Part shown: in pieces, positions 2,763 through 57,164 of the stretch
Layout: each line of letters begins with the position of its first letter
Numbering within the stretch: position 1 is the first letter of the stretch
From: Pseudomonadota bacterium
GTDB taxonomy: Bacteria > Myxococcota_A > Bradymonadia > UBA4248
Length of the DNA stretch: 64,000 bases
Direction of reading: 5' to 3'
Assembly: GCA_017441205.1 (NCBI GenBank)
Contig: JAFRYG010000142.1
Location: forward strand, 499 to 64,498
The notes under the pieces: model-generated
The model's database searches: none
What the model was told of the DNA's origin: nothing
What the model saw: only the letters and a program-made list of their open reading frames with translations
Position numbers and translations under genes: made by a program

Positions 2763-3608
2763 TTATTTCGGTTTCTGCGTGGTAAAAAGTGCGATTTTCA
2801 TTGGAACTTTCAGGCCTTTGCCCTGAAAGTAATGATGGAATGAACGGACCAGGTGCGTGAGCAAAGCCTTGGTGTCGATTTCGGGATCGCCAGGATTCAG
2901 GCAGTAACCGAGATAATGTGATTCGACGAGCGTGGAGAACAGGAGCTGTTCAACGGTATCAAAGACGAGGTCAAACGAGGATGTTTCACATCCCGTAATC
3001 TCAAGTCCACTGTTCTGGATGGCAGTGGATATGGAATCAATGGACATGGCCTCGTGGAGAGCGGGGAGGATTTCCTTGCATTTCTGGGGATGAAGCCGGA
3101 AGAGTGATTCTTCGAGGATATCAAAAAAAGCGGGAAATGATCCGTCCGTTGGAATGGCACAAATCAGGTGTCCTTCGGGTCTGAGTACTCTGCGATATGC
3201 CGAAAAAACGACTTCAGCCCGGCACAGCGTTGAGAGTCCCACTTCTGTGATGGCGAAATGAAAGCTGTTGCTGGCGTAATTCAGGGCAGAGAGGGGCTGC
3301 GTCGAGAAGTACAGATTCAGCATGCTTTTGGGTGTCATCTGACGAAATGATTCGAACCGCGTGTTCGATTCATCGACGATCATGAGCTTGCCGGGGGATC
3401 CGCTCAGGCATTCGATGAGCTTGCTGAGAAGGGATTTAAACCTCAATTCCGGCAACAGTATGACCGGCTGTTTGGGCATCGTGCAGGCAAAGCTGTACTC
3501 CAGCAACGGAATATCGACCTTTTCAGACCAGATCGGATCGATACAGGTTTCGTCGATGTGCATCTGCCGTGCGATGCGTTCGGCCATCTGATTGTTTTTA
3601 TCGGTCAT
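2763..3608 (-). CDS. Hypothetical protein, degenerate BioC-like methyltransferase fold
   Basis: YRRVLRPEGHL resembles a class I MTase motif, but there is no glycine-rich SAM motif I; start of this ORF overlaps the thiL stop (ATGA). Confidence 0.45.
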   Translation of the reverse strand: MTDKNNQMAERIARQMHIDETCIDPIWSEKVDIPLLEYSFACTMPKQPVILLPELRFKSLLSKLIECLSGSPGKLMIVDESNTRFESFRQMTPKSMLNLYFSTQPLSALNYASNSFHFAITEVGLSTLCRAEVVFSAYRRVLRPEGHLICAIPTDGSFPAFFDILEESLFRLHPQKCKEILPALHEAMSIDSISTAIQNSGLEITGCETSSFDLVFDTVEQLLFSTLVESHYLGYCLNPGDPEIDTKALLTHLVRSFHHYFQGKGLKVPMKIALFTTQKPK

Positions 3609-4621
3609 GATGGTGCTTCAGAATGGGATGGAAAGTGTGAAAAGCTCTCGTCTGATCGCAGGGATGGAAGTCCATTTTCGAGCCATTGAACGCCAGTTCC
3701 CTGCATACAGGAGCCAATCCGGAAACAGGAGATTCCATTTTCCCGGGCCAGATTTATGATGGTCATAGCATGATTTGGCTCACACGTCATGAGTAATCCA
3801 AAATCTTCTCCGCCGCAAAGCATCCAGTCGATGGGATCGAGATCAAATTTTTCGGCAATTTCGCATAGCTGCGGCGGTGGCGTGAGGTTTTCGATTTGTA
3901 TTTTTGCCGCGCAATGACTCTGCATCATGAGTCTTGGCAGATCTGTCCGAATGCCATCCGAAAGGTCCATCATCGCGGTGGCCAGCTGTCTTCGTGCGAT
4001 GGCAGGTCCCAGTGCGGCGAGTGCTTTGGGGCGTCTGAAGTCCTGGATGAAGGTGGCGAATTTTTGGAATTCAGGTGTGAGGTGCAGTCCGCGCCGGCAG
4101 ATTTCGAGGCCGGCTGCAGAGAATCCGGGATTGCCGAGGACCAGAATGGCATTTCCGGGTCTGGCACCAGTGCGGAGCACTGCCGGCCAGGGCGGGTTTT
4201 GACCGAGCAAAGTAATGGAGAACAAGGTTTGCCGGCTGCGTACGACGTCGCCGCCGATGAGCCAGCATTTATCGAGTCCGTGGTCCTGGATACAGGATTT
4301 GATTGCCTGAACTGCCGCCTGAATTTCGTGCAAAGGGAGTGCAGGGGACAGGCCGAGTGCCAGTGTGAACGGCCCGGCATAAGCGCCCATGGCGGCGATA
4401 TCACTGATATTTGAGGTCATGCAGCGATAGGCGGCATCTGCCAGCGTCATCCACTCGAGATTGAAGTGGACGCCTTCGATGGAGGCATCTGTCGTTATGA
4501 GGTCGAATCGGGTCCGCAAAATGGCGCAATCATCGCCGATGCCTCTGATCGTGATATCATCGCGCGAAGGGAATTCGCGCGATATGAGATCGATGATTTG
4601 CGATTCGGTCCAGTCGGACAT
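3605..4621 (-). CDS. thiL: Thiamine-monophosphate kinase
   Basis: GIGDDCA, EGVHF, SNISDIAAMGA, GGD, AMMDLSDG and GGEDFGLL motifs. Confidence 0.93.
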   Translation of the reverse strand: MSDWTESQIIDLISREFPSRDDITIRGIGDDCAILRTRFDLITTDASIEGVHFNLEWMTLADAAYRCMTSNISDIAAMGAYAGPFTLALGLSPALPLHEIQAAVQAIKSCIQDHGLDKCWLIGGDVVRSRQTLFSITLLGQNPPWPAVLRTGARPGNAILVLGNPGFSAAGLEICRRGLHLTPEFQKFATFIQDFRRPKALAALGPAIARRQLATAMMDLSDGIRTDLPRLMMQSHCAAKIQIENLTPPPQLCEIAEKFDLDPIDWMLCGGEDFGLLMTCEPNHAMTIINLARENGISCFRIGSCMQGTGVQWLENGLPSLRSDESFSHFPSHSEAPS

Positions 4622-34026: not shown

Positions 34027-35145
34027 TCAAGGCTTGCAATACCTTCCTGCAACAAATTGAATCATTCCAGCCAGTTCCAGTTCGAGAACGGCTTCGTCAA
34101 AATCATTCGGATATTGAGTGTTTGTGCGGATTTGGTCACGCGTCATCGGCGATTTTGCAAGCAGTTCGATGATGTCATTTTTTGTTGGTGTCAGCTGTGT
34201 GTTGTTGTGTGTTAATGTGGGTTTCTGTGCGGGGATGACGTGCTCCTGAAATGTACCAAAATGTATCGTTTGTTGGGTTTGTGGCGTAAGAGCGTTCAAA
34301 TCCTGCAAATCACTGATGAGTTTTGCCTTTTGCGTTTTGACAAGCTGCCAGCCGCCTTCGGTCAGATCGTTAAATCCCGGCATTGCGGCAACCAGAACGG
34401 GGCGATTGAAGCGGTTGGCGGCTTTTGCCGTATAGAGAGCCCCTCCCCCGATTTTGCTTTGAATGATGATTGTGGCCTGACTGAGTGCAGCAATGATATC
34501 ATTGCGTCGGGGAAAGTTGGGACTGTGTCTTTGCGGCGGTTTATTGTACTGGCTGACGATAGCTCCATTTTGTTTGGCATAATCAAATATATCTGCGTTT
34601 TCTTTGGGGTAGATATTATCGACGCCGGTCGCGCTGACGACGATAGTGGGCTGATTTCGTTTGATTGCCTGGCGATGGGCAAGTGCATCAATACCCAGAG
34701 CACCGCCGCTCGTAATGATAAAACCTCTGCAAATGACATCGTCGGCAATCATAGGCGTGATTTTATTGGCCTCATCTATGGTTTTGCGACTTCCGACAAT
34801 GGCGATCTGCAATGATCTGAGAATGCCCGGATTGCCGCAGACGCACAGAACCGGAGGTCTGTGCATGTCGTAAAGTTTTGGGGGATACAGAGGATCTCCG
34901 GGGCACAGGATTGACTTATTTCGCGCTTTACACTCGAACTCAATTTCTTTTCCTTGCGAACATGCGGACTGAATGCATGGAAGTGCATGTAATTCCTGTA
35001 GTTCGCGCCAGCGTTCCTCAAGGCCCTGAATCGTTTGTAGTTCGAGTATTTCGGTGATGGCCGGATGGCTTGAATCAAGGTGTTTCCAAAGAAAAATGGC
35101 TAATGAACGTCTGGTGCTGTGGTCGCAGTCAACGGTGTATGTCAT
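34027..35145 (-). CDS. dprA: DNA processing protein DprA/Smf
   Basis: YPPKL, IAIVGSR, TSGGALGIDALAH, FPRRNDIIAALS, GGALYTA and C-terminal winged helix LELELAG. Confidence 0.9.
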   Translation of the reverse strand: MTYTVDCDHSTRRSLAIFLWKHLDSSHPAITEILELQTIQGLEERWRELQELHALPCIQSACSQGKEIEFECKARNKSILCPGDPLYPPKLYDMHRPPVLCVCGNPGILRSLQIAIVGSRKTIDEANKITPMIADDVICRGFIITSGGALGIDALAHRQAIKRNQPTIVVSATGVDNIYPKENADIFDYAKQNGAIVSQYNKPPQRHSPNFPRRNDIIAALSQATIIIQSKIGGGALYTAKAANRFNRPVLVAAMPGFNDLTEGGWQLVKTQKAKLISDLQDLNALTPQTQQTIHFGTFQEHVIPAQKPTLTHNNTQLTPTKNDIIELLAKSPMTRDQIRTNTQYPNDFDEAVLELELAGMIQFVAGRYCKP

Positions 35146-35449
35146 GGAGTCTCCTTATTGTCTGGGACAGGGGGATTCCCGTCATATACATGATGCCGTC
35201 GAGATGGATTTGTTGCAGTCGGATGGATTATTTTTTTGCTATGTTTAATCACCGTGGAGAATGCAGATATAAGGTCATGATTTATCGGCAATCGACAATC
35301 GAAAATATGGAATTCTATAGTTCCTATTGTCTATCCTGGTTTCACTTGCTGTTATACGGCATCCTCTCTATTCTGGCGCAGCATGGGGCGCTGCCGCTCT
35401 GCCGAAAGAACGCTGAAGGCGTGCAAGCGTACAATCGAATTCCGTAAAC

Positions 35450-36044
35450 CCAATCTTGTTTAACAGAGTATTATATAGCACAGAACACTGACAATTATTA
35501 TCTGTCATATGTCATACTTAAATAAACTTCCATGGATACTGCAAATATAAGGGCTTATCGGTAGTCATAAATCGGCAATATCGGATTCAACATGATGCGT
35601 ATCTTAAAATGGCATTCTTTACCTAATCTTGTTTAACAGAGTCATTTTATATCAATGAACGCTGACAATTATTGTACTGGCCATAGATAATGACAACAAT
35701 ATACAATTTTTCTTTTCCCGGGGCATCCCCTACGGGGATTGATTTTGGTGCATTTCTTTTGTCCCACGGTGGTCGCTGCGCTCCAACCGTGGGCTACTCG
35801 CCAGAAGCCTCTAACAGGTTTCTTTTGATATGCTCATTAACCATGTCCATAACAATAATTGTCTGTCATATGTCATATTTAAAACTTCCATGAATACTGC
35901 AAATATAGGGTCTTGGTATTATCGGTAATCTTAAGTCGGCAATATTGGATTTAACATGCGCATGTCTTAAAATGGCATCCTTTATCCAATCTCGTTTAAC
36001 AGAGCCATTTATAGCAATGAACGCTGACAATTATTATCTGTCAT
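35450..36044. repeat. ~173-bp AT-rich degenerate tandem repeat (about 2.4 clear units, interrupted by a ~180-bp insert)
   Basis: [C/T]AATCT[T/C]GTTTAACAGAG recurs at 35451, 35624 and 35987; flanking blocks are conserved. Confidence 0.85.
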
Positions 36045-36127
36045 TCAGATTTTAGCATACATCCAATACTATATTATGTAACGTAAAATACTATTCCAGG
36101 TAACTATTGATTACTTTTGGATATACA

Positions 36128-36506
36128 CACATGTAGTATAATGTAGGTTTGATATTCTTCCTGGTAACCAAGGGTTACCTCAGGTCCCTTCCCACCCGCC
36201 GACTCGCCGTCCAAACCCAAAATACGCACGGTCCTGGCACACTGCTCCCTTTCCAACGTTAGGCGTTGTAAAAAAAAGCATCCCGATGTGCCTGGCATGT
36301 ACAGCGCTTCAATGTCACGTCCCGCGTCCAGGAAAAGTTGACATTGCAAACCGGCCCTCGGTCGTCCGTACATTATGTTGGGCTGCTGTTGTCAGACAAA
36401 ACCGGATGAATACATATGCATCTCCAAAATCAGGAAGGAACCATTCCTTCATCCACGTAATGCCATTGAGGATGCATTTGTTTCACTTGTGTGTACGATT
36501 TTTTTT
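36128..36506 (-). ncRNA. Candidate large structured ncRNA of unknown family, copy 1
   Basis: Homologous to 53261-53637, with 50-nt and 38-nt identical blocks and covarying stems. Confidence 0.7.
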
Positions 36507-53064: not shown

Positions 53065-53071
53065 AAAGAAA

Positions 53072-53145
53072 TAGCTAGGAGTGGACTCGAACCACCGACC
53101 TGACGGGTATGAGCCGTCTGCTCTAACCAACTGAGCTACCTAGCC
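53072..53145 (-). tRNA. tRNA-Met (CAT), elongator-like; CCA not encoded
   Basis: GGCTAGG acceptor, AGCTCAGTTGGTTAGAGC D-arm, GACGG-CTCATAC-CCGTC anticodon arm, GGTTCGAGTCC T-arm. Confidence 0.93.
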
Positions 53146-53183
53146 ATGGGATCCATCGGTTAAACCCAACGGAACGAGGCGGC

Positions 53184-53212
53184 CTTATGCCGAATACTGT
53201 TGGATTTGTCAA
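53184..53212 (-). promoter_or_regulatory. Sigma70-type promoter of tRNA-Met
   Basis: TTGACA-17 bp-CATAAG followed by a GC-rich discriminator (GCCGCC). Confidence 0.7.
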
Positions 53213-53260
53213 ATGTTTTTTGTACTTTTTGGATATCATGGCAATCAGATCCGGTTTTGC

Positions 53261-53637
53261 AAAAAAAATCATACACCAAAATGAAACAATTGCTTTCCCG
53301 ATGGCATCATGAATACGAAGGAATAGTCCTTCCTGTTTTGGGGAGTGAGAGATGTTTTTATCTGGATTTGTCTGACACAGAGTCCCCCGACATAATGTAC
53401 GGACGACCGAGGGGCGGTTTGCGGCATTGTGATATCCGGACGCGGGGGATAATGCTGAAGTGCTGTACATGCCAGGCACATCGGGATGCTTTTTTTTACG
53501 ACACTTGATTTCGGAAAGGAGGCAGTGTGCCATGACCGTGCGTATTTTGGGTTTGGACGGCGAGTCGGCGGGTGGGAAGGGACGAGAGGTAACCCTGGTT
53601 ACCTGGAATAATATTAAAACCGCATTGTGCTACATGT
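53261..53637 (+). ncRNA. Candidate large structured ncRNA of unknown family, copy 2
   Basis: Homolog of 36128-36506; helices close fully only on this strand (G.U pairs). Confidence 0.72.
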
Positions 53638-53706
53638 AGGTGTACTGTTTATCAACGAAAGCTATTCTTTCGTAACGGGGAGAGACCAAGGGAATTTATT
53701 CCAATG

Positions 53707-53795
53707 CAAGCCATCCTAAAAACAGGGGGATTGGTTCGGCGCGGCGAAGGATTTTGTTGTCGGTGTCAAGCCATCCTTACAACAGGGGAATTGGT
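53707..53795. repeat. Two 29-bp direct repeats with a 31-bp spacer (possible third degenerate unit near 53659)
   Basis: CAAGCCATCCTAAAAACAGGGGGATTGGT / CAAGCCATCCTTACAACAGGGGAATTGGT. Confidence 0.65.
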
Positions 53796-53969
53796 GATGT
53801 GTGGGGCAGTAGAAAGGCTCCAAGCCCTAAGCTCTGAATAGAAAGGTGTACTTTCATTATTTATGTTCGAAATAATCATGCAGTAACCCCTGAACAACTG
53901 ATGTTGGCTCTGTTCATTCGCATAAAAAGTCGTTATAAGCGTTTGTTGGAGTATTTTGGAGGTTTTGTT

Positions 53970-56900
53970 ATGTGCCAGATGAAGAACAAGCCGTTTTTAA
54001 TTCTTTTGCTTGGGGTGATGCTGTCTGCCGGATGCATCGATCCTTCGGATTATGTCAAATACGTCGAAGAAGATCCTCCCGAACCGGAAAGACCAGTGGT
54101 CGTGGACCCTCCGGGAGAAATACCTGACCAGGGAGATGAACCCAAGAGGCCTGGAGGATCTGCGGGGATCATACCTGGAAATCCTGAAGACGTCGACGAA
54201 CCGGTCCCTGGCGGGGCGGGGAATGGAGGGGCCGTCGTGATTCCTGAAAAGCTTGCGCTGGAATCCGTGGTTCCGTCCTCGGGAGATATTCGGGGGGGGT
54301 ATGAAGTGCGCCTTCACGGAACCTGTCTGGACAAATCGGGAACCATGCAGTTCGGTGCTCTGGATGCCCCTGAGCTGACGTATGTGAATACAAAAGTCGT
54401 GCGAGCCAAAGTTCCCGAAGGGAAAAAAGGATGTGTCGATATTGTCTGGAATCAGGACGGCGAAACACTGACCTTGAAAAATGGCTTTTGTTACGTCGAA
54501 AAGATTGCTTTTTCGGAGGTCGTTCCCGATGTGGTCGTCAGCAATACGGCAACCGAACTTGTGATCCATGGATCCGGATTTGATGACAAAACGCGGGTCT
54601 ATCTTTCGGATGGAGAAAAGACGCTGCCTATCGTCGATTTGCATGTTGTATCGGGAACGGAGCTCAGGGGGCTGATGCCCGTTCTCAAGGAGGGCATGGC
54701 TTCTGTCTATTTGCTGAATGGGGCCGGCGAGGTATCGGCTGAGAATGCAATAAAGGTGCTGCCTGAAATTTCTTTGAGTTCTTTGGAACCCTCGCGCATT
54801 GAAGTCGGTAAATCCACTGAGATTTCGATCGCTGGCAAGGGATTTTGGGAAGATGTCCAGGTACGCATTGGAAGTGAAGTCGTAAAGCCGGATTCCGTGA
54901 ATGATTCAAAGCTTGTAATGAAGGCGCCTTCTCTTTCGGCGGGACATTATGATGTCCTGGTTTACGATGGCTGGCAGCAGAGCCGGCTGGATAAAGCCAT
55001 TCATTACTACAACAACGATGGATCGCCCCAGGTTCTTGAACTCACTCCTGCCAAAGGATCTATAAAGGGTGGAACTTCGGTAACGATTCATGGCGTCAAT
55101 CTTCCCATTTCCGGGGATGCCATGTTTGACGGACAGAAAGCTTCGGTGAAATCCAGAACATCGAATGCCTGGATGCTGACCACGCCGGCGCATGAGGCCG
55201 GATTCGTCGATGTTGCTGTCGGGGAGTATGAGCTTAAGAAGGGATTTGAGTATACGGCTGTCGCTTCGACGCTGAAACTGGATTCGATCAAACCGGAGCA
55301 TGCAGTCGTTGCGGATGGCAATACGTATGTCGTGCTCAAGGGGAGCGGCTTTACCAAGGATATGAGCGTAAGTTTTGGTCCCTGGGAATCGGAGTCTGTT
55401 TCGATCGTCAGTTCCGGTGAAGCCAAAGTCCTCGTGCCCAAAGGCTCCGGAACAGTTCCGGTCACCGTCAGTGTGGGAGACAAAACAGCTCAGAAAACAT
55501 TTACCTACGATGATGCCGTTTCGATTCTTGGAATAACGCCTGCAGAAGCCGTTTTGACTGGCAGCACGCACATCGATGTGTATGGAACTGGTTTTGCTGA
55601 GGGAATGAAAATTCAGATCGCCGGAGAAAAACTGAAGACGACGATTAGTCATCCCGGCCACCTTTCATTTTATGCCCCTGCGCACGATGTGGGGACAGAT
55701 GATGTGATTCTGCTCTGCAAGGATGGGAAGGTTTGCGGCAAAACGCAGCTGACCTGGTTTGATTCCTCGGGAATCAATACGAGTGCTTTTGGTAGTGCCA
55801 TCGATGGTCAGCTCCATGTGACCGTTTTGACTGTGGATACGGCTGTGCCGATCGAAGGAGCTACGGTGTATATCGGCAGTGATCTCGAGACAGCTCTGAA
55901 GGGGACGACGGACAAAGATGGCCGCGTGTCCTTTTTTGACAAGCGCCTGAAAGATGCGCAGATCGTGATTGCCTGTGCGCCGGAGCATTCCTGCAATACG
56001 CTTCAGCCCATCAATGCGACGAATGTAACGCTGTTTCTGGAAGACTGGCATGCCGATGATCCTCCTTCCGCTGAGGATAACCCTCCGCCACCGCCGCCAG
56101 AGGGAGATACGATCAATCCTGTGGAAGTGTCGGTACCTTATAAACCGGAACAGCCTTATTTTTCGGGAACAGTGGGAAGTTTTGGCAAGTTTGAACTGGT
56201 TTCGAATCCGGCATTTGTCAAAGCCGGCCTCGTGATGCAGTCTTCTCTGAGCCCCTATATGATGTCGTACGACAAGGATGACGTTTATCTCATTCGCGAA
56301 GTTGGCGGAAAATACAAGCTTAAGGCTCGTTCTGGCGATGTGGCACTCGCTTTGGTCTGTGGTCTGTATGATACGGTTTCCGGTGCGTTTTATCCCAAGT
56401 ATATCGGGGTGAAGCGGCATTTGTTCGTTTCGGATGGAGCCAAGATCGTCAACCATCTGGAGTGCCCGATTCCGCTCAATCAGAATCTGAGCATTAAACT
56501 GCTGGATCCGCCTCTGAAATCCGGTCCCAATGGTGTCCGCGCAAGCGCCTATATCTTCGTGGGCGATGAAGGATATATCGGTGGCTTCATGGGCGGGGAA
56601 TCCAAAACGGATTTCGTTGTGATTACCGGCATGCCGCCGCTTCGCGATTCACTTTCGGAGTCTTCGTTTGCCATTACCGCCGGCGCCTATACTGATGGCG
56701 GTTATCCGGCTTCGGTGTTTTACGAATACAATGTCGTGCCGGACGGCAGTACGCTCGAAGTGGGGCCGGCAGCGCCGATTCCCGTATTCTATACCAAGAG
56801 TACGGACGATATCCTTGCAACGGGCGTCGTTTCGTGGTCTGTGGAACATCCCGAAAACGTGGATTTTTATGCGATGACCATTCGCAGCTATGGCCCCAAG

Positions 56901-57164
56901 GGATCCAAACTGATTTGGCAGTTCTATATGCCCGGCAATGCGACATCGGCGGAATTTCCAAAGGTATATTCGTGGCCGGAAGATCATTCCGAAACATTGT
57001 ATATTCAGCTGACCGCCTACAAATCCATTCGTGAAGGCTTTGATTTCAATAAGTTTTCAACCGGAGATACCCGTCATAATTATATTCATTCGTCGGCGAC
57101 GTCGACATTGATGATTAATGATCCGGCGAATGAACCTCCTCCTCCGGGGGGCGGAGCTGGTTAA
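53970..57164 (+). CDS. IPT/TIG-domain lipoprotein
   Basis: GGAGG RBS; lipobox SAGC; repeated [L/V]..[V/I].P..G...GG..V.I.G..F domains. Confidence 0.82.
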   Translation: MCQMKNKPFLILLLGVMLSAGCIDPSDYVKYVEEDPPEPERPVVVDPPGEIPDQGDEPKRPGGSAGIIPGNPEDVDEPVPGGAGNGGAVVIPEKLALESVVPSSGDIRGGYEVRLHGTCLDKSGTMQFGALDAPELTYVNTKVVRAKVPEGKKGCVDIVWNQDGETLTLKNGFCYVEKIAFSEVVPDVVVSNTATELVIHGSGFDDKTRVYLSDGEKTLPIVDLHVVSGTELRGLMPVLKEGMASVYLLNGAGEVSAENAIKVLPEISLSSLEPSRIEVGKSTEISIAGKGFWEDVQVRIGSEVVKPDSVNDSKLVMKAPSLSAGHYDVLVYDGWQQSRLDKAIHYYNNDGSPQVLELTPAKGSIKGGTSVTIHGVNLPISGDAMFDGQKASVKSRTSNAWMLTTPAHEAGFVDVAVGEYELKKGFEYTAVASTLKLDSIKPEHAVVADGNTYVVLKGSGFTKDMSVSFGPWESESVSIVSSGEAKVLVPKGSGTVPVTVSVGDKTAQKTFTYDDAVSILGITPAEAVLTGSTHIDVYGTGFAEGMKIQIAGEKLKTTISHPGHLSFYAPAHDVGTDDVILLCKDGKVCGKTQLTWFDSSGINTSAFGSAIDGQLHVTVLTVDTAVPIEGATVYIGSDLETALKGTTDKDGRVSFFDKRLKDAQIVIACAPEHSCNTLQPINATNVTLFLEDWHADDPPSAEDNPPPPPPEGDTINPVEVSVPYKPEQPYFSGTVGSFGKFELVSNPAFVKAGLVMQSSLSPYMMSYDKDDVYLIREVGGKYKLKARSGDVALALVCGLYDTVSGAFYPKYIGVKRHLFVSDGAKIVNHLECPIPLNQNLSIKLLDPPLKSGPNGVRASAYIFVGDEGYIGGFMGGESKTDFVVITGMPPLRDSLSESSFAITAGAYTDGGYPASVFYEYNVVPDGSTLEVGPAAPIPVFYTKSTDDILATGVVSWSVEHPENVDFYAMTIRSYGPKGSKLIWQFYMPGNATSAEFPKVYSWPEDHSETLYIQLTAYKSIREGFDFNKFSTGDTRHNYIHSSATSTLMINDPANEPPPPGGGAG

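Follow-up and report, generated by a model that had tools for sequence, protein, structure and literature searches.

A probable new family of structured RNA with a promoter common to dprA and comEC in uncultured gut Myxococcota

The streptococcal sigma-X com-box/cin-box is an extended conserved promoter element that serves a small gene set including dprA and comEC, and both Vibrio TfoR and the multi-copy pneumococcal csRNAs are RNA regulators in the control of natural transformation. Legionella RocR and its mimics from conjugative elements are further RNA regulators of natural transformation (PMC6744872). In Bacillota and Actinomycetota, 74% of raiA motif RNAs (ModT) lie downstream of comFC (PMC10861870; also PMC11706538), and this RNA has phenotypes in cell differentiation (PMC10861870, PMC11706538). 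ROOL, GOLLD, and OLE are RNAs of 500-800 nucleotides (nt) that often reside in prophages or beside tRNAs and form RNA-only cages (PMC12286853). The present analysis concerns an element at positions 53261-53644, on the plus strand of a 64-kb stretch of contig JAFRYG010000142.1 (the whole stretch of DNA that was analyzed, hereafter the window), which a first-pass annotation had outlined at 53261-53637 as one of two structurally preserved copies of a candidate noncoding RNA (ncRNA). On balance, the element probably represents a new family of structured, trans-acting ncRNA, encoded by a stand-alone gene with a competence-type promoter in uncultured gut and rumen Myxococcota (UBA4248-like).

The raiA motif RNA may be regarded as the closest known analogue in mode of existence, membership in that family being excluded by the Rfam test described below. 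Both would be stand-alone, trans-acting, structured RNAs of a few hundred nucleotides that are highly conserved, have no known biochemical function, and are tied to DNA uptake. The present RNA differs in that it matches no Rfam raiA model, belongs to gut Myxococcota, and is linked to competence by a promoter common with dprA and comEC, not by gene adjacency; neither comFC nor raiA genes occur among the annotated neighbors of the RNA loci. Moreover, raiA RNA is typically single-copy, whereas the present RNA is multi-copy. With ROOL, GOLLD, and OLE it has in common the occurrence in rumen or environmental bacteria, a complex conserved fold, and an orphan function; unlike them, it is ~300 nt long, chromosomal, not present in viral collections, only incidentally adjacent to tRNA genes, and matched by none of the corresponding covariance models (CMs). 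The tie to natural transformation is also seen in RocR, TfoR, and the csRNAs, of which the csRNAs are likewise multi-copy; however, these are short (50-150 nt) base-pairing small RNAs acting upstream on com mRNAs, whereas the present RNA is larger, ornate, and apparently an output of the dprA/comEC-type promoter, not an input to it. As with the com-box/cin-box, a conserved extended element would serve a small gene set including dprA and comEC, but its sequence and geometry are different (an A-tract, TGNAACAAA, a 17-nt spacer, and CATCAT), and its hosts are uncultured. The dedicated promoter in common with dprA and comEC appears to be the distinguishing feature of the RNA family.

The element lies in an intergenic stretch (53147-53900) bounded by a tRNA-Met gene (53071-53146, minus strand) and a gene for an IPT/TIG-domain protein (open reading frame, ORF, 53901-57164). 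A blastn search of 53151-53960 against the window confirmed the existence of a second copy, located on the minus strand at 36124-36506 (80.8% identity over 391 nt, E 2e-94); it is referred to here as copy 1, and the element at 53261-53644 as copy 2. In the pairwise alignment of the two, near-identical blocks (53461-53500 and 53533-53585) are separated by variable segments, and 1-nt indels shift the frame. A third match, also on the minus strand, is limited to 60 nt (35179-35237), covers the first part of the element only, and lies just upstream of dprA.

Homologs were retrieved from a collection of metagenome-assembled genomes (MAGs), scanned for an exact 21-mer from the P6/P7 block (helix names as in Table 1), and from metagenome contigs, scanned for a 19-mer; the resulting loci carry L numbers and the sequencing runs X numbers. 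The 21-mer matched two MAG contigs, L001 (Myxococcales bacterium UBA4248) and L002 (a 3-kb goat-rumen contig), a 26-mer from the 3' block matched none in the MAG contig scan, and the 19-mer returned 48 loci. Homologs of ~300-385 nt, with 71-97% identity, are present in 38 of the 50 loci. A search of 445 kb with nhmmer and covariance model R1 (304 positions, 46 pairs) recovered 40 copies at 203-321 bits, compared with ~10 bits on the opposite strand, and gave no other match. The proposal that the RNA belongs to no described family withstood comparison with Rfam 15: cmscan of the whole window at the gathering threshold returned tRNA only, a scan of 53150-53960 at E<=10 gave chance matches to unrelated families only, and nine diverse loci scanned at E<=5 matched no family. 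Viral contigs, 50,697 phage records, and plasmid records contained no member of the new family, and a literature search with conserved sequence strings found nothing relevant. In seven ruminant gut runs, the contig depth summed over 53385-53585 is 30-100x that of the flanks, so the family is very abundant, at the DNA level, in ruminant gut communities. Metagenome assemblies break at the element, and the P6/P7 hairpin is the most conserved block in the depth profiles.

Copy 2 is 97% identical to its ortholog in L026 and 77-81% identical to copy 1 of the same genome, and the median pairwise identity across the family is 68.5%. Judging from these values and from the compensated stems, the copies are old paralogs, each under its own purifying selection, and not recent transpositions. 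Locus L030 contains a copy (365-669) that is 99.5% identical to that of L026 over the first 225 alignment columns, while its P8-P9 part is <=73% identical to any copy; such a mosaic indicates modular recombination between paralogs. A second full copy is present in the same locus at 1205-1508, ~500 nt downstream of the first.

There is little doubt that the stretch contains a real structured RNA gene. RNAalifold folds alignment A3 (35 sequences) into 50 pairs, and 19 of these show compensatory changes. In a curated structure of 54 pairs on the same alignment, 95.0% of the cells are paired (89.8±0.3 in shuffles) and double changes affect 23 pairs and 102 cells (12.7 and 24.7 in shuffles); none of 500 column shuffles reached any of the structure measures. 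When the 3' partners are slid by ±1-3 columns, pairing falls to 36-50% and the number of double-change cells to 11-27. U·G pairs are conserved at four P6/P7 positions in 28-34 of 34 sequences and would become A·C mismatches on the reverse strand, which fixes the RNA strand as plus. The general signature of a structured ncRNA, a compensatory structure on one strand, is therefore present, and the CM scores of the two strands differ in the same direction. Three helices drawn in the first-pass annotation, here named P5, P6, and P7, were all recovered, the last of them spanning 11 bp in copy 2.

The interval outlined there thus stands as a structured RNA element, except that its first ~50 nt (53261-53311) are, to judge from their sequence, promoter and not RNA. 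The geometry is that of the sigma70 family, and an alternative sigma factor probably reads it; the hexamer spacer is 17 nt in 35 of the 44 sites of a loosened motif scan, the list of which includes a few chance intragenic matches. The first G of P1 lies 6 nt (range 5-8) past CATCAY in 32 copies. Promoter geometry and the position of P1 together place the probable 5' end of the RNA at ~53315-53318, and the plus-strand start formerly expected at 53240-53260 is too far upstream, since 53261-53311 would be the promoter common to dprA and comEC. A shared, specialized promoter is likely. Other assignments were rejected. For a sigma54 promoter, inspection showed TGGCAT but no GC at -12, while in an ECF-type (extracytoplasmic function) reading, TGNAAC-N16/17-CGTC, the CGAY block is merely ~11 nt from the -35 element. 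An internal sigma70-like candidate within the 5' domain, TTGTCT-N17-CATAAT, has a spacer of 16-25 nt across copies, and the covarying P3 begins right after it.

The searches for this promoter covered the window, 387 kb of related loci, and the retrieved loci of DprA and ComEC homologs. The pattern TG[ACT]AAC-N13-16-GGCAT has three sites in the window compared with 0.38 expected, two at the RNA copies and one at dprA (34027-35145, minus strand; Pfam DNA_processg_A, 3.6e-52). Outside the RNA genes, a promoter-profile search of the 387 kb gave four significant matches only: comEC in L006 (7e-12; identified as ComEC by the Pfam domains Competence, Lactamase_B, and DUF4131), an ADP-ribosylglycohydrolase (ARH) gene in L027 (7e-9), and dprA in the window and in L012 (1e-7). 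Further DprA and ComEC homologs (41-51% identity) were taken from other species ('Proteobacteria bacterium' and 'Bradymonadales bacterium'). The motif was found at dprA in L054 (5e-11) and L051 (2e-7) and at comEC in L055, which is from the same MAG as L051; diverged variants (TGTCAC...CATCAT) are located upstream of dprA in L052 and of comEC in L057. The distance from CATCAY to the start codon is 13-48 nt at dprA (window, L012, L051, and L054), comEC (L006 and L055), and the ARH gene (L027). The ARH gene (2865-3932, minus strand; PF03747), with the promoter at 3900-3949, is divergent from the RNA copy of its locus and, by this motif, is an unexpected member of the gene set. Within the searched sequences of the clade, the promoter appears to be otherwise confined to dprA of four species, in the window at 35193-35237, to comEC of two, and to this one ARH gene. 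The element is thus common with core DNA-uptake genes, and its gene set may best be called a DNA-uptake (competence) regulon, a label chosen because dprA and comEC are the recognizable protein genes; its members would presumably be co-induced. The 5' untranslated region (UTR) of dprA in the window opens with a P1-like hairpin, GACGGG-AAUCC-CCCUGUC, and a closer P1 look-alike is found in the dprA UTR of L054. The 3' AUGUAGGU motif of the RNA was considered as a DNA-uptake sequence and rejected, with just 3 occurrences in the window.

The genes downstream of the RNA vary and include those for M14 peptidase, trigger factor, prolyl-tRNA synthetase, RlmN, a methyltransferase, a BspA-type leucine-rich repeat protein, CCG/Fe-S proteins, and ComEC. 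At seven of the loci, RNA and downstream gene are convergent, and the gaps range from 170 to 1000 nt. As the downstream genes are diverse and often convergent, the RNA is a stand-alone gene and not a leader. Beside the RNA, tRNA genes are found in L026 and L030 alone, both orthologous to the copy 2 locus, and 35 other loci have none there; tRNA adjacency is incidental, not a family trait.

A number of observations weigh against the interpretation as a structured RNA under a competence-type promoter. The single-sequence fold (z = -1.1) is no better than shuffles, so the structural support is comparative; the 5' domain has no helix assigned in the curated structure, and a terminator scan found no U-tract terminator after P9. 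The promoter call rests on position, geometry, and conservation, and the regulon call on a small number of protein gene types, above all dprA and comEC; the comEC of L056 lacks the motif. In the runs labelled as metatranscriptomes (X26, X27, X29, X33, and X39-41), tRNA-like contigs are present and family members are not, although the host may be absent from them. In run X16, whose library type is uncertain, a 213-nt contig corresponds to 53412-53621 (3 mismatches, depth 3.5) and a second family member is present, while all that covers 20 kb of the same genome is one or two single reads; the pattern would fit an RNA library and is suggestive, not proof. Run X36, which bears the labels 'GENOMIC' and 'RNA-Seq' at once, has coverage of the promoter and of the upstream flank as well and is likewise no more than suggestive.

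The many dispersed copies with unrelated neighbors, two of them ~500 nt apart in L030, and the breaking of contigs at the element in metagenome assemblies would also be compatible with a nonautonomous mobile or repeat element, resembling a miniature inverted-repeat transposable element (MITE) or the end of an insertion sequence (IS), equipped with an outward promoter and dispersed into many intergenic sites; in L002, a copy adjoins an IS110-family transposase gene. Such an origin is unlikely, as the contrast between same-genome paralogs and the L026 ortholog indicates that the duplications are old, near-identical copies were not found, and the covariation, with its conserved U·G pairs, is of the RNA type and specific to one strand. 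The 5' boundary coincides with the promoter common with cellular genes, no terminal inverted repeats or target-site duplications were noted by eye at the boundaries, where no dedicated scan was made, and there is no viral, phage, or plasmid match. The IS110 gene (L002 626-1786, minus strand; DEDD_Tnp_IS110 and Transposase_20) is found in one of ~34 loci, on the opposite strand; it is inserted 227 nt 3' of the RNA copy and truncates a tandem array, the complete form of which is present in the near-identical locus L041. Between the independent selection and the mobility that had both been suggested for the two copies, purifying selection on each copy holds and mobility is improbable. The tRNA-Met gene adjoining copy 2 had brought to mind large ornate RNAs such as GOLLD and ROOL, which are associated with tRNAs or prophages and self-assemble into RNA-only cages. 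The rumen origin, complex conserved fold, and lack of a known function of the present RNA would agree with this assignment, and homo-oligomers are known for ROOL, GOLLD, and OLE (PMC12286853). The suggested link does not hold, given that tRNA genes accompany the RNA at its nearest relatives only, and the assignment has little probability: at ~300 nt the RNA is far smaller, Rfam 15 gives no ROOL, GOLLD, OLE, or raiA match (window at E<=10; nine loci at E<=5), matches to viral contigs and phage records number zero, and the RNA has a dedicated promoter common with dprA and comEC.

Seven or eight conserved GGA motifs (AAGGAAU, CYGGAU, ACGGAC, CCGGAC, UCGGGAU, UCGGAAA, UUGGACGG, and GGGAAGGGA) and the multiple gene copies typical of sponge RNAs raise the question of a CsrA/RsmA-type sponge, an RNA that would titrate a global regulator of translation through its many (C/U)NGGA motifs. 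Most of these motifs, however, are located in stems, junctions, and bulges, unlike the hairpin loops of CsrB/RsmZ; the elaborate conserved long-range fold contrasts with the repetitive hairpin arrays of known sponges, and no Rfam CsrB/Rsm model is matched, which makes a sponge of this type improbable. It is very unlikely that the element acts in cis, as a 5' leader or riboswitch, on the gene downstream, which for copy 2 is the IPT/TIG gene starting at 53901 or 53971. At copy 2 that gene is indeed on the same strand, 297 nt past the RNA core, but elsewhere the downstream genes are functionally unrelated, convergent in seven loci, and separated from the RNA by the variable gaps given above; terminator/anti-terminator logic is not evident, and the promoter occurs without the RNA at dprA and comEC. 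Stop-free stretches of 72-135 codons exist in some frame of every copy, as a small protein-coding gene would require (e.g., the 59-aa ORF 53460-53639 or minus-strand ORFs). Yet no frame is open throughout the family, each varying from ~10 to ~135 codons, gap lengths modulo 3 are 1, 2, and 0 in 346, 92, and 65 cases, the indels between the window copies shift the frame, and the substitutions in stems are compensatory; a coding function is exceedingly improbable.

Table 1. Coordinates of the promoter and RNA features of copy 2 and of related sites in the window
Feature	Position	Strand	Remarks
A-tract, UP-element-like	53261-53268	+	Sharp 5' homology boundary between copies; also precedes the motif at dprA, comEC, and the ARH gene
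-35-like element TGAAAC (consensus TG[A/C/T]AAC, then AAA)	53282-53287	+	T32, G33, A35, A36, and C37 invariant in A3
-10-like element GGCATCAT (CATCAT = 53305-53310)	53303-53310	+	G53, G54, C55, A56, T57, and A59 invariant
P1, 5'-terminal hairpin GAAGGA-AUAG-UCCUUC	53317-22/53327-32	+	93% canonical pairs, changes to G·U only
5' domain	53333-53395	+	Holds AUC(U/C)GGAUUUGUCUGAC (53360-53376) and ACAUAAUG (53390-53397); invariant columns T111-A125 and A142-T146
Three-way domain P3/P4/P5	53396-53469	+	P3 encloses P4 and the hypervariable P5; P5a caps P5
P3	53396-402/53463-69	+	Double changes in 6/7 pairs, 99% paired
P4, loop AGGGG	53406-09/53415-18	+	Double changes in 3/3 pairs
P5, hypervariable hairpin	53422-29/53450-57	+	Double changes in 5/6 counted pairs
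P5a, invariant loop GACG	53435-38/53443-46	+	Double changes in 3/4 pairs
Long near-invariant hairpin P6/P7/P7a	53475-53531	+	98-99% paired
P6	53475-81/53525-31	+	Nearly invariant
Bulge CGGGA, 5 nt	53482-86	+	Invariant
P7, UGC+U8, U·G-rich	53487-97/53514-24	+	Conserved U·G pairs
P7a, variable apical stem-loop	on P7	+	Compensatory changes
P8, GAC(CGU)/(G·CG-A)GUC around a U/G-rich loop	53534-36/53564-66	+	Columns 321/353: GC 19, AU 9, GU 2
G-rich segment GGCGGGUGGGAAGGGA, four G-tracts, 1-2-nt loops	53567-53582	+	Invariant G317-A327
P9, 3' hairpin AGGUAAC-CCUG-GUUACCU	53587-93/53598-604	+	Last element common to nearly all copies; nhmmer/CM core ends 53604-53611
Semi-conserved GU-rich 3' tail ACCNCAU..CUACAUGUAGGU	53605-53644	+	In ~20/35 copies
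Paralogous copy 1, promoter and RNA	36124-36506	-	CM match 36155-36455, 303 bits
Promoter without RNA (A-tract/TGCAAC/17-nt spacer/CATCAT)	35188-35237	-	44 nt upstream of the dprA start codon; E 1e-7

The distribution of conservation within the RNA is uneven. Invariant in sequence are the P6/P7 hairpin with its CGGGA bulge, the GACG loop of P5a, the AUC(Y)GGAUUUGUCUGAC block, which is the conserved single-stranded block of the 5' domain, and the GGCGGGUGGGAAGGGA strand, while P5, P7a, the P8 loop, and P9 vary freely with pairing kept. The hairpin at P9, for instance, is formed in each copy with altered stems (e.g., GCUAACAC/GUGUUAGC), and manual inspection of A3 shows that classes with a different 3' domain (e.g., AACC-A-UGCG/CGCAGGUU) keep the P8 helix. 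The pattern of invariance would fit fixed surfaces on a structural scaffold that recognize a conserved protein or nucleic-acid partner. The G-rich segment may be single-stranded, may form a G-quadruplex, or may pair with CCUUCC at 53328-33; on alignment A4, RNAalifold paired it with the 3' strand of P1, both sides being free of variation, and this predicted pairing is a possible candidate for a helix closing the 5' and 3' ends or for a conformational switch. In the long-range or pseudoknot candidates UUUGUCUG/CGGGUGGG and CCUUCC/GGAAGG, both strands are invariant, so no covariation signal can arise. A palindrome, CUACAUGUAG (53630-39), is located in the 3' tail, which may hold the 3' end of the RNA.

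Several features of the flanking DNA accompany the RNA genes. In the 'class B' RNAs, which have an alternative 3' domain (L014 from ~310 downward, L010 from ~486 downward, and L041 from 2887 onward), 3-5 tandem units of 42-63 nt follow; the first unit begins inside the 3' end of the RNA, in the common module GGxUGGCG-N3-GCYGUGU, and the units may be a repeated 3' module or a slippage product. Tandem heptamers (TGAGTTT, AACTCAC, CTTGGAG, TAGTGAA, ATAGCTT, and GAGCTTA) occur on either side of the RNA genes, the flanks concerned including those of L007, L027, L030, L009, L039, and L043, and are common in the intergenic DNA of the clade. Downstream tandem repeats were rejected as a defining trait: arrays reported by TRF (Tandem Repeats Finder) are present in 10/31 downstream and 6/31 upstream flanks, and these counts indicate that the heptamer repeats are general in the clade's intergenic DNA. 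Between the RNA and the TIG gene of the window there are two direct repeats of 29 nt each, 60 nt apart (53707-53735 and 53767-53795; CAAGCCATCCT.A.AACAGGGG.ATTGGT), and runs X5, X7, and X25 contain strains without one of the two units (joint 53706>53767). On the other side of the element, close relatives have two tandem tRNA-Met genes (L026 8286-8476; L030 8-198) where the window has one, and metagenome contigs carry the duplicated form (joint 53147>53064, 32-nt insert). Copy 1 is separated from the dprA promoter by an AT-rich tandem array of ~173 bp units (35250-36044). Conservation of the unit in other strains is indicated by a 183-nt contig of run X36 that matches 35676-35858 with 9 differences.

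For the favored interpretation, a stand-alone, trans-acting ncRNA under a competence-type promoter, the following sequence of events can be proposed. The alternative-sigma-type promoter, composed of the A-tract, the -35 and -10 elements, and the 17-nt spacer between them, would drive plus-strand transcription of an RNA of ~290-325 nt that starts at ~53317 and ends at ~53604-53640. The transcript would fold, in order, into P1, the three-way P3/P4/P5 domain, the U·G-rich P6/P7 hairpin with its CGGGA bulge, P8, the G-rich strand, and P9. As a member of the competence (DNA-uptake) regulon, it would be made when the regulon fires, and each genome would maintain several diverged paralogs under purifying selection, with occasional exchange of modules by recombination. 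The P6/P7 bulge and the G-rich strand might bind a conserved protein partner, the RNA acting as a scaffold or sponge and not by antisense pairing; a protein-binding RNA with a role in competence is the most plausible function but a tentative proposal and rather unlikely as it stands. More doubtful is a dedicated competence regulon with a new 'com-box' (the promoter as described above), whose most numerous targets would be multi-copy structured RNAs of ~300 nt and not proteins. Such RNAs would take part in DNA uptake and processing or control them by feedback; they might, for example, assemble with DprA or other proteins of the regulon into a ribonucleoprotein, or turn off the competence sigma factor by acting as its decoy.

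Bacterial RNAs that are large, well folded, and without a known function are rare, and new biochemistry has repeatedly come from them. The core depth of 30-100x that of the flanks means that the present family has been contained in public data without being recognized. The promoter common with dprA and comEC provides a concrete handle, as it predicts when the RNA is made and permits the direct design of knock-out and induction experiments, and the motif could serve as a readout of the competence regulon in an uncultured lineage that is abundant in the livestock gut. If the assignment is true, a late-competence regulon would for the first time include an ornate RNA as a built-in member. The sharing of the promoter also suggests that these bacteria may be naturally transformable, which would bear on gene flow in the rumen.

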